A stretch of DNA of 64,000 nt from a virus (taxonomy: Duplodnaviria; Caudoviricetes): positions 1 to 64,000 of IMG/VR virus record IMGVR_UViG_3300001687_000013; one strand, given 5' to 3'. Made by a program: the position numbers and the translations under genes. The notes beneath the pieces were generated by a model that saw only the letters and a program-made list of their open reading frames with translations, had not been told where the DNA came from and did not search any database. Below, in pieces: positions 5,540 to 7,176 of this stretch. Every line of letters begins with the position of its first letter. Within the stretch, counting starts at the first letter, position 1.

Positions 5540-5756
5540 AAAAGCCTATAAAACTGTAATATTACCAGTGACCGTTCCTGACTCCGATTACTGTTGGAGG
5601 AAAGGTCAGATGGTATGTCCATATCTCGATACCTTCAAGAATCCTATTAAATGCAACTTAGGGTTTTGTGGTGTTCACTTTAATGAAAATGGTGTTATTC
5701 TTAAACCTGAAAGCTGTTTAAATCTAAAACCAGAAAGTAAACCGAAGAAAAATTAA
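5529..5756 (+). CDS. Cys-rich hypothetical protein
   Basis: overlaps previous gene; YCW...CPYL...C.LGF...KPESCL. Confidence 0.6.
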   Translation: MKTKKAYKTVILPVTVPDSDYCWRKGQMVCPYLDTFKNPIKCNLGFCGVHFNENGVILKPESCLNLKPESKPKKN

Positions 5757-5899
5757 CAAAATGTCGATAAGTATATATACGGGGGATAACAGAGAATGCA
5801 ACCCCCACCCATCGGCTAAGATCGGGCATGGTGAAATATCCACCCTGGCAAAGGCCGATATTAGAACATGCGTTGTGGGTGACACGATAAACCCTCATC

Positions 5900-5985
5900 A
5901 TCGGGCTTCGGGTCAAGTACCTCTTTTAGGGGTGTAGAGGGAAATGACCATATCCAGTTAATCACCCAATAGGATAAGCTCCGAT
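5900..5985 (+). ncRNA. structured RNA motif A, copy 1
   Basis: closing stem ATCGGGCTT/AAGCTCCGAT; AGTA-CCTCT..AGAGG-GAAA; loop GGGTG complementary to CACCC. Confidence 0.6.
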
Positions 5986-6290
5986 CCAATCCCTGGGGGG
6001 TTTGGAAGGTTCACCTGAAATCTTCCAGTTGTAGGTATCCTTAAACCTTCCGTTGGGGGCTACGTGAGTGCCCCTTTTATAAACCTTTAACTACCCGTTA
6101 AAGCTCAATCTCCTTGAATGGAGAAAGCCAGGGAGGAGGGGAAAACGATGTATTAATATGAAAATATTATAAATCATCGGATAGTTTTAATTTGCCAATT
6201 ATATTGCCTGGGAGTTTTTTCGTGGGTTTTTCTCCTTTGCAAAAAAACCTACATTGATTTTTCTCAGGCTTTTGAAAGTTACTTTATGGT

Positions 6291-6372
6291 AAGGGTCTGG
6301 TAAAGTACCTCTTCTAAGGGTGTAAGAGGGAAAGAAGTTCCGTACAGTTAATCACTCTATAGAGAGACCCTT
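6291..6372 (+). ncRNA. structured RNA motif A, copy 2
   Basis: closing stem AAGGGTCT/AGACCCTT; AGTA-CCTCTT..AAGAGG-GAAA; GGGTG/CACTC; CAGTTAATCAC shared with copy 1. Confidence 0.6.
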
Positions 6373-6420
6373 TTGGGTTGTGGGTGAGCCTTATGCCTTA
6401 ACTTAAAAACCCTCATTATA

Positions 6421-6552
6421 TGTAGTCATTTTTGTAGACAATATTAACTGGGTTCGATTCCCAGTGTCCCGAATGAGTATAACCTACTCAACCCTATTTG
6501 GGATAGGAGAGATGGTGTAATGGAAACACGGTCTACTTAAAAACGTGCCACA
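6421..6552 (+). ncRNA. circularly permuted tRNA-like RNA (YrlA-type Y RNA architecture)
   Basis: GTAGAC/GTCTAC stem encloses a T-arm (CTGGG TTCGATT CCCAG), a closed stem-loop, then a D-arm (GTGT AATGGAA ACAC). Confidence 0.65.
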
Positions 6553-6645
6553 CACGTTGCATGTCCTATCATTGGATAAAGGTTTGTAGATTTTCCTACT
6601 TAAAAATCCTACGTATTGAAAAAATGTTTTTCATAAATTAGAGTA

Positions 6646-6675
6646 AGGGGGAGAGTAACAAAAAATTCTCCCCCG
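6646..6675. terminator. GC-rich hairpin at convergent junction
   Basis: GGGGGAGA...TCTCCCCC. Confidence 0.45.
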
Positions 6676-6798
6676 ACCTCCAATCTTATAATTTCCTCTT
6701 CAGGAATACCCCCCAGAATAAGGCACTCGATTATCACACGACACTTACCCTTTGTAGAGCAACTTGTGTCTTAAAATGGACATGAGGGCCTTATTTGA

Positions 6799-7176
6799 TT
6801 ATCTTAAGAATCCGAACCCAATTATAGACTCTGGATCTATTGTAGGAAGATTCTTACTTGATAAAAAGTTATTTACCTGGTCAATTGTTGGGTTACTTAC
6901 CAATAGTTGTGAATATTCCCAAACAAATTTTTCCACAACCTCTTTGCCTCTTTCTTTATATTCTAAAGCTTTGGCAATTCCAGGATATTCACTGGCCCAA
7001 TATATATTTGTTAAAGCATTCTCAAAGTCATGCATTTTAAGTGCAGCTTGAGTAGCATCAAGACCTGTAAGAAGACCCACGATCCTGCCAGTCATATTTT
7101 CTATTTCTGCATCCAGCAATGTACCCTTTGGTAACACATAATCCAAAACCTCTAAAACTTGCTTTGCCTTGTTCAT
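6799..7176 (-). CDS. leader-bearing hypothetical protein
   Basis: MNKAKQVLEVLD. Confidence 0.8.
   Translation of the reverse strand: MNKAKQVLEVLDYVLPKGTLLDAEIENMTGRIVGLLTGLDATQAALKMHDFENALTNIYWASEYPGIAKALEYKERGKEVVEKFVWEYSQLLVSNPTIDQVNNFLSSKNLPTIDPESIIGFGFLR

Follow-up and report, generated by a model that had tools for sequence, protein, structure and literature searches.

Two paralogous copies of a candidate structured RNA, placed beside a recurrent phage hairpin, in a non-coding island of a T4-related myovirus

Two same-sense copies of an element of about 85 nt (copies A and B), lying 388-390 nt apart, were distinguished on the + strand of a non-coding island of approximately 1 kb in the genome of a large myovirus related to T4. 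The pair is a real structured-RNA candidate, unclassifiable so far, whose closing stem (P1) has good internal support; within the collections searched it is an orphan pair. Each copy is placed directly beside a short hairpin (X), which recurs in unrelated phage contigs. In the explanation that we favor, and to which we give about an even chance, A and B would be paralogues of an undescribed, tRNA-sized structured RNA that is excised from a precursor of the + strand and acts in trans.

The DNA analysed (64,000 nt, hereafter the window) covers the first 64 kb of an IMG/VR contig that is 98 kb long (linear class; CheckV completeness 44%). The phage carries nearly all of its genes on the − strand and encodes a tail sheath protein, whose closest cultured relatives (43% identity) are those of Rhizobium phages (about 207 kb, T4-related), while the closest relatives in IMG/VR share 42-47% identity. 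Three tRNA genes were identified in the window with ARAGORN and Rfam, none of them inside the island. The island is bordered on the left by two small + strand ORFs, ending at position 5756, and on the right by the 3' end of a long train of − strand genes, the last of which occupies positions 6799-7176 (−). Its GC content rises to 0.45-0.48, compared with about 0.33 nearby, and the GC skew is slightly positive. The features of the island (Table 1) are arranged on the + strand in the order X1-A, terminator, B-X2 and a tRNA-like unit. The last of these has an acceptor-like stem that is closed and an outer stem that is long and interrupted; its T-arm precedes a D-like arm, and ARAGORN called it neither a tRNA nor a tmRNA. 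A strong hairpin with G5/C5 runs (approximately 6643-6675), situated about 125 nt beyond the stop codon of the last − strand gene, may terminate the − strand operon short of copies A and B. No + strand gene follows copy A or copy B, and no transposase, replication-initiator or partition genes were found near the island. Genes for Ro/TROVE and RtcB proteins were absent from the 98-kb contig, which represents 44% of the genome.

Table 1. Positions of the two copies, their structural parts and the neighboring features of the island (numbering of the window; R1, covariance model built from copy A alone; R2, two-sequence model built from A and B; R3, model of hairpin X).
Feature	Position	Strand	Details
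Non-coding, GC-enriched island (about 1 kb)	5757-6764	+	Without credible ORFs; contains copies A and B, X1 and X2, and the terminator
X1	5872-5897	+	11-nt and 8-nt halves, 7-nt loop; 31.2 bits with R3; ends 2 nt before copy A
Copy A (86 nt)	5900-5985	+	121 bits with R1; 106 bits with R2
Copy A, P1 5' strand	5900-5908	+	Pairs with 5976-5985; 9 bp, bulged U at 5980
Copy A, long arm	5911-5949	+	P1a, 5911-5915/5945-5949; P2, 5920-5924/5936-5940
Copy A, internal loop	5916-5919; 5941-5944	+	AGUA opposite GAAA, between P1a and P2
Copy A, arm loop (11 nt)	5925-5935	+	GGGUG at 5930-5934
Copy A, conserved 3' block	5955-5972	+	CACCC at 5963-5967 (proposed partner of GGGUG); AUAG at 5969-5972
Copy A, P1 3' strand	5976-5985	+	Pairs with 5900-5908
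Intrinsic-terminator-like hairpin with U run	6056-6078	+	−10.5 kcal/mol; 70 nt 3' of copy A
Copy B (82 nt)	6291-6372	+	36.8 bits, E 1.9e-8, with the copy-A-only model; 95 bits with R2
Copy B, P1 5' strand	6291-6298	+	Pairs with 6365-6372; 8 bp, perfect
Copy B, long arm	6299-6341	+	Weak P1a, 6299-6303/6337-6341; P2, 6308-6313/6324-6329
Copy B, internal loop	6304-6307; 6330-6333	+	AGUA; GAAA
Copy B, arm loop	6314-6323	+	GGGUG at 6318-6322
Copy B, conserved 3' block	6345-6362	+	CACUC at 6353-6357; pairing with GGGUG kept via one G-U
X2	6377-6415	+	20-nt loop; 35.1 bits with R3; starts 4 nt after copy B
tRNA-like unit	6421-6552	+	Consensus T-arm at 6448-6464 (+ strand T-loop; partial tmRNA/tRNA T-arm match)

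The presence of two copies on the + strand had been proposed beforehand from the sequence, and the covariance models confirmed it. R1 retrieved copy B and nothing further in the window or the 98-kb contig, and R2 revealed no third copy, even when applied with filters off across the island; moreover, a pattern joining the three 5' blocks has exactly two matches in 64 kb and none in 100 shuffles. The cores of A and B share 50 of 61 positions (82%). Conservation, as would be expected of a functional RNA, is unevenly distributed between (i) the block comprising AGUA, P2, the loop and GAAA (27/29 identical), (ii) the 3' block (16/18), (iii) the junction between these two conserved blocks (3/8) and (iv) the strands of the closing stem (5/8 and 5/10); the closing stem is less conserved than the loops and junctions. 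The 40-nt outer flanks share about 50% identity, which is the random level. No reading frame is common to A and B: the blocks fall in different frames interrupted by stop codons, and the lengths of the indels are not divisible by three.

Several other candidates were considered for this region and rejected. A third, degenerate copy at 5811-5859 was matched in quality by 10% of shuffles and recognized by no model; a coding duplicate was dismissed because of the differing frames and the stops inside them; and a tmRNA or two-piece tmRNA was discarded, given that no tag-like frame is present and ARAGORN was negative.

In the proposed fold, P1, which would be free to vary in sequence, encloses a long arm composed of a lower helix (P1a), the AGUA/GAAA internal loop, an invariant helix of 5-6 bp (P2) and a loop of 10-11 nt; the invariant 3' segment that follows the arm may form either a weak third helix or a pairing with the loop (GGGUG/CAC(C/U)C). 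The two closing stems had been described in the sequence-only reading as different in sequence and yet paired in both copies, and this description proved correct. The energies of the P1 duplexes are −10.8 (A) and −12.1 kcal/mol (B), and pairing of such strength is reached by 0.13% (A) and 0.06% (B) of the equally spaced pairs of 12-13 nt segments in this genome. When the P1 strands were aligned inside-out by eye, four positions were compensatory (U-A/C-G, C-G/U-A, C-G/A-U and U-A/A-U) and none was broken. The model-based alignment likewise contains four pairs in which both partners differ (P1, three; P1a, one), and 93% of its cells pair, vs. 39-52% after displacement of the 3' partners by 1-3 columns. 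This covariation comprises four pairs in two sequences of one genome. P2 is invariant, and therefore variation neither supports nor contradicts it. As aligned, P1a of copy B retains three of its five pairs, and the MFE z-scores of the copies are ordinary (−1.2 and −1.7).

Two further elements of the fold, both suggested earlier from the sequence, stood in part. The pairing of GGGUG with CACCC or CACUC does exist in the respective copies, the G-U pair being kept in copy B, but it is matched by 7-10% of shuffled 3' tails and is not significant alone; its sole variation is a one-sided change. A GGGUG:CAC(C/U)C pseudoknot is plausible. Inside the conserved 3' block, a third helix is possible (C-G, A.A, G.U and U-A; weak in copy B), and if it is formed, the pseudoknot would become a loop-loop contact of a three-way junction. 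As for the loop-E motif (AGUA/GAA), its sequence fits copy A, where it lies between two helices, whereas in copy B the 3' side of the internal loop is an 8-nt segment (GAAAGAAG) and the lower helix is weak. AGUA/GAAA is compatible, by sequence, with the bulged-G/loop-E consensus, which is suggestive. The + strand is favored because the G-U pair in the loop pairing of copy B and the AGUA/GAA motif make sense only there; the + strand T-loop of the T-arm at 6448-6464, the terminator-like hairpin and the elevated GC content of the island also count for this strand.

Rfam 15 was searched at gathering thresholds with the window, at E ≤ 10 with the island and, using the laxest filters, at E ≤ 10 with each copy. 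No family was assigned to copy A or B at gathering thresholds and no relevant one at E ≤ 10; a detectable relationship to tRNA, rRNA fragments, glutamine riboswitches, pRNA, Y RNAs or small ribozymes is thereby excluded. That such searches do work is shown by the models of the pistol ribozyme, GOLLD and tmRNA, which matched other loci. Neither copy was matched by models of the hammerhead, twister, twister-sister, pistol, hatchet or HDV-like ribozymes, the Y RNA (YrlA) model found no match in the island, and no tRNA cloverleaf was recognized in copy A or B by ARAGORN or by the Rfam tRNA model. The proposal of an undescribed structured RNA, made from the sequence, is supported by the compensatory changes in P1, the conservation of loops and junctions, the lack of a common reading frame and the lack of an Rfam family.

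Homologues of the element were sought in several collections. Four exact-pattern scans of IMG/VR yielded no true homologue: two of them gave 0 matches, five matches of a third pattern were chance occurrences in other sequence, and 31 matches of another pattern belonged mostly to one family consisting of a promoter and a gene start, none of them being accepted by R2. The exact-pattern scan of the JGI metagenomes gave 0 matches, while five matches found among 185,579 species genomes were forced by the pattern, scored 12-18 bits and were devoid of the 5' half. In blastn comparisons with 50,697 cultured phage records, nothing was found for the island, and the core produced only chance words of 19-37 nt. 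Neither R1 nor R2 detected the element in the five top-ranking sheath relatives, three of which are complete genomes, and R2 found no A/B-like unit in the 45 loci bearing hairpin X (see below). A neighboring gene encodes a 403-aa protein whose relatives (43-56% identity) come from Logan and ENA data only, none being present in the JGI and IMG/VR scans; the 82-aa upstream ORF is an orphan for which no relatives were found.

The two halves of hairpin X occur together only at X1 and X2 in the 98 kb. A scan of IMG/VR for both exact halves, separated by a free spacer of 4-34 nt, identified X in 45 unrelated contigs (L128-L172), with a total of 47 sites, one or two per contig, and 41 distinct inner segments. 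Conservation extends beyond the imposed pattern: a G precedes the motif, GA is followed by a C, and AACCC has GG in front of it. The halves could form a stem of seven positions (six Watson-Crick pairs and U.U) that closes a loop of variable length. The 47 sites were picked by exact halves, and the model R3 finds three weaker sites with the same stem sequence. A covarying upper stem was rejected, as most of the inner segments form no stem. X is covered by no Rfam family in the window or at the other X sites, X was not found by blastn in cultured phages or E. coli genomes, and searches of the literature for its strings brought up only primers and unrelated text. The assignment of X to a domain of drum RNA was rejected: the match, which spans the 3' half of copy B together with X2, is at chance level (16.6 bits vs. 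a threshold of 43), and the other X sites have no Rfam match. Drum and similar families resemble A and B in being compact conserved folds located outside 5' UTRs, followed by a terminator and with a function that is not known; they differ in being widespread, whereas A/B has two members.

In the 45 X-bearing loci, all 118 of the 118 tRNAs predicted by ARAGORN are encoded on the same strand as X. In 8-10 contigs, a distance of 1-8 nt separates X, on one side or the other, from a tRNA end; elsewhere, X precedes the ribosome-binding site of unrelated genes by 10-40 nt. Given the gaps of 2 nt between X1 and A and of 4 nt between B and X2, copies A and B hold the slots that tRNAs take beside X elsewhere; in addition, X2 is located about 20-30 nt 5' of the tRNA-like unit. 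X, a hairpin widespread among phages and apparently undescribed in Rfam, marks clusters of tRNAs and small RNAs as well as gene starts. It may act as a leader or processing signal; alternatively, it may be a mobile single-strand hairpin.

Some of the X-bearing contigs carry further RNA features. In nine GC-rich contigs (L134, L145, L147, L151, L152, L159, L164, L166 and L172), a second hairpin is present about 30 nt upstream of X; its stem varies between contigs, its loop is conserved (GGCGGA or GGCGCA) and it has no Rfam match. This arrangement hints at a longer RNA, with two hairpins and about 70 nt, in this GC-rich subgroup. Known RNAs were also identified, namely a GOLLD RNA (L155, 13068-13477; 210 bits) within a cluster of 21 tRNAs, a phage tmRNA (L154, 11740-12088; 113 bits) within a cluster of 39 tRNAs, and a pistol ribozyme (L130, 2652-2712; 57 bits).

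The position of each copy 2-4 nt from X, i.e., where tRNAs are found in other phages, points to excision of the tRNA type. The units would probably be released as discrete RNAs of tRNA size from a longer transcript of the + strand; judging from their placement, P1 would act as an acceptor-like stem, and the likely enzymes are those with which the host processes tRNA ends. Placement beside X is the only tRNA-like trait of A and B. Counting against tRNA-like units are the negative results of ARAGORN and the Rfam tRNA model and the fact that a CCA (5986-5988) follows P1 directly in copy A only, copy B being devoid of it. Cis regulation is unlikely because no + strand gene follows either copy. The same absence, together with the invariant sequences of the P2 helix and the loops, suggests that the RNAs would most likely act in trans as specific binding partners, probably of a protein rather than a metabolite.

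A close parallel in arrangement is provided by rnaC and rnaD of T4 (species 1 and 2 RNAs), which are likewise two adjacent, small, non-tRNA RNAs of a T4-type myovirus. They are arranged in line with tRNA genes of the same strand; rnaD, which terminates in CCA, begins 1 nt past tRNA-Arg, and rnaC has a T-arm. They differ in length (119 and 139 nt vs. about 85 nt for A/B), and A and B, unlike rnaC and rnaD, are located at least 13 kb from the tRNA genes of their own phage. R2 applied with filters off gave no match to rnaC/rnaD (L127, 2409-2672). A free-sequence closing helix and two arms with complementary loops are also found in the phi29 pRNA and the purine riboswitch, and the GGGUG and CAC(C/U)C loops could pair intramolecularly or link A with B. 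In A/B, however, copy B has a weak third helix, neither family matches, and the myovirus analysed here has no phi29-type packaging system.

To our knowledge, the RNAs of the non-coding islands of large phages are mostly unexplained (rnaC/rnaD of T4 after 50 years, GOLLD and ROOL). The A/B pair is a clean, small case, with a compact fold, internal evidence that selection acts on the structure, and no relatives known, and its placement ties it to processing of the tRNA type and to X, present in at least 45 unrelated phage contigs. The link to X raises the value of the pair somewhat. If A and B are discrete, stable RNAs, they would offer a handle on the role of RNAs associated with phage tRNA clusters, and X would become a usable marker for finding such RNA genes. 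A bolder proposal, which we put forward as speculation with the odds clearly against it, is that A and B found a new class of phage RNAs occupying tRNA slots (catalytic, ligand-binding or loop-joining) and matured by the tRNA-processing machinery, with X as a hitherto undescribed signal, for punctuation or as a leader, in clusters of phage tRNAs and small RNAs.

Each of the rival readings fits fewer observations than that of paralogous, trans-acting RNAs. In the first, which we judge unlikely, the units are cis-acting sensors or attenuators that bind a ligand or factor, set read-through at structures further downstream (in the case of A, at the terminator at 6056-6078) and steer antisense transcription into the converging − strand operon, with X as a competing partner. 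The closing stem, conserved junctions and loop-E-like internal loop do give the units an aptamer-like architecture, and a terminator-like hairpin indeed follows copy A, but too far from P1 for an expression platform of the usual kind; no terminator lies behind copy B, and a + strand gene is missing after both. The GGGUGA and CCCUC segments of X can pair with UCAC(C/U)C and GAGGG of the units (−9.6 to −13.4 kcal/mol); nevertheless, X lies on opposite sides of A and B, and short complementarities are cheap in an island rich in G and C runs. The invariance of the P2 sequence would also be unusual in an aptamer helix. A precedent is the glutamine-I riboswitch (glnA RNA), a small closed fold that joins an AGUA/GAA E-loop, with the internal loop GAAGUAA/UGAAGC, to a long-range pairing (PMC5393176; PMC6698751), as A and B may do. 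Its conserved nucleotides are different, A and B are not matched by its Rfam model at E ≤ 10, and, unlike this 5' UTR riboswitch, they precede no gene of nitrogen metabolism, nor any other gene.

A role at the level of DNA is similarly improbable. In this reading, A and B are protein-binding repeats (of an origin, partition or packaging site), or X1 and X2 are the single-stranded DNA hairpin ends of a small mobile element carrying both copies. The same-sense repeats flank an AT-rich stretch (approximately 6150-6215), the arms of P2 form an inverted repeat of invariant sequence, and X, a hairpin of conserved sequence that contains a T-T mismatch and varies in its loop, is found once or twice per contig in unrelated phages, as a mobile hairpin might be. 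Binding to double-stranded DNA would not, however, select for P1 arms that lie about 67 nt apart and are divergent in sequence yet complementary; the G-U pair of copy B is an A-C mismatch on the opposite strand, and the genes expected for a transposase, a replication initiator or a partition system are missing from the vicinity.

The view that A and B are a decaying local duplication without function carries about the same low probability. It agrees with the finding of only two copies, in one genome and with no relatives, but neutral drift would not keep a core that is 82-93% identical with P1 half changed yet fully paired, and the outer flanks have already reached random-level identity while the core has been retained.

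Still less probable is a self-cleaving ribozyme or processing signal, in which equivalent cuts in the two copies would release an RNA of about 390 nt or separate neighboring RNAs. The compact fold, the invariant junction nucleotides, the possible pseudoknot and the occurrence of two same-sense copies 388-390 nt apart would all suit such an activity, and small ribozymes are common in phage contigs, as illustrated by the pistol ribozyme of L130. Against this stand the lack of a match to the Rfam ribozyme families at E ≤ 10, the absence of any feature marking a cleavage site, and the tRNA-like slots beside X, which point to processing by protein enzymes.

Finally, the suggestion that the units are decoys for toxins attacking the sarcin-ricin loop of 23S rRNA was not upheld and is very improbable: AGUA opposite GAA(A) beside a C-G/G-C helix corresponds by sequence to the bulged-G motif of that loop, and the local string resembles the rRNA around AGUAC...GAGG, but the GAGA tetraloop, which in rRNA is closed by C-G directly above the motif, is replaced in A and B by a helix of 5-6 bp and a loop of 10-11 nt, the LSU and 5S rRNA models gave no match at E ≤ 10, and the bulged-G motif is a common building block, occurring, e.g., in the glutamine-I riboswitch (PMC5393176).

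Several other features of the window were recorded. No further non-coding repeat family was found in it, its main direct-repeat families being formed by the N-terminal leader of − strand genes: the ORF at 6799-7176 (−) bears the leader common to neighboring genes, and dozens of small − strand genes between approximately 7000 and 35000 carry a similar leader of 12-16 codons. The non-coding island contains two strong Shine-Dalgarno-like runs (6136-6156 and 6504-6519), each followed by ATG, one codon and TAA; the second of these start-stop mini-ORFs falls within the tRNA-like unit. At 1238-2650 (−), a 470-aa protein is encoded, which combines a RimK-type ATP-grasp domain (E 6.5e-42) with a C-terminal Zn_protease-like domain (PF05618, E 6.9e-9).
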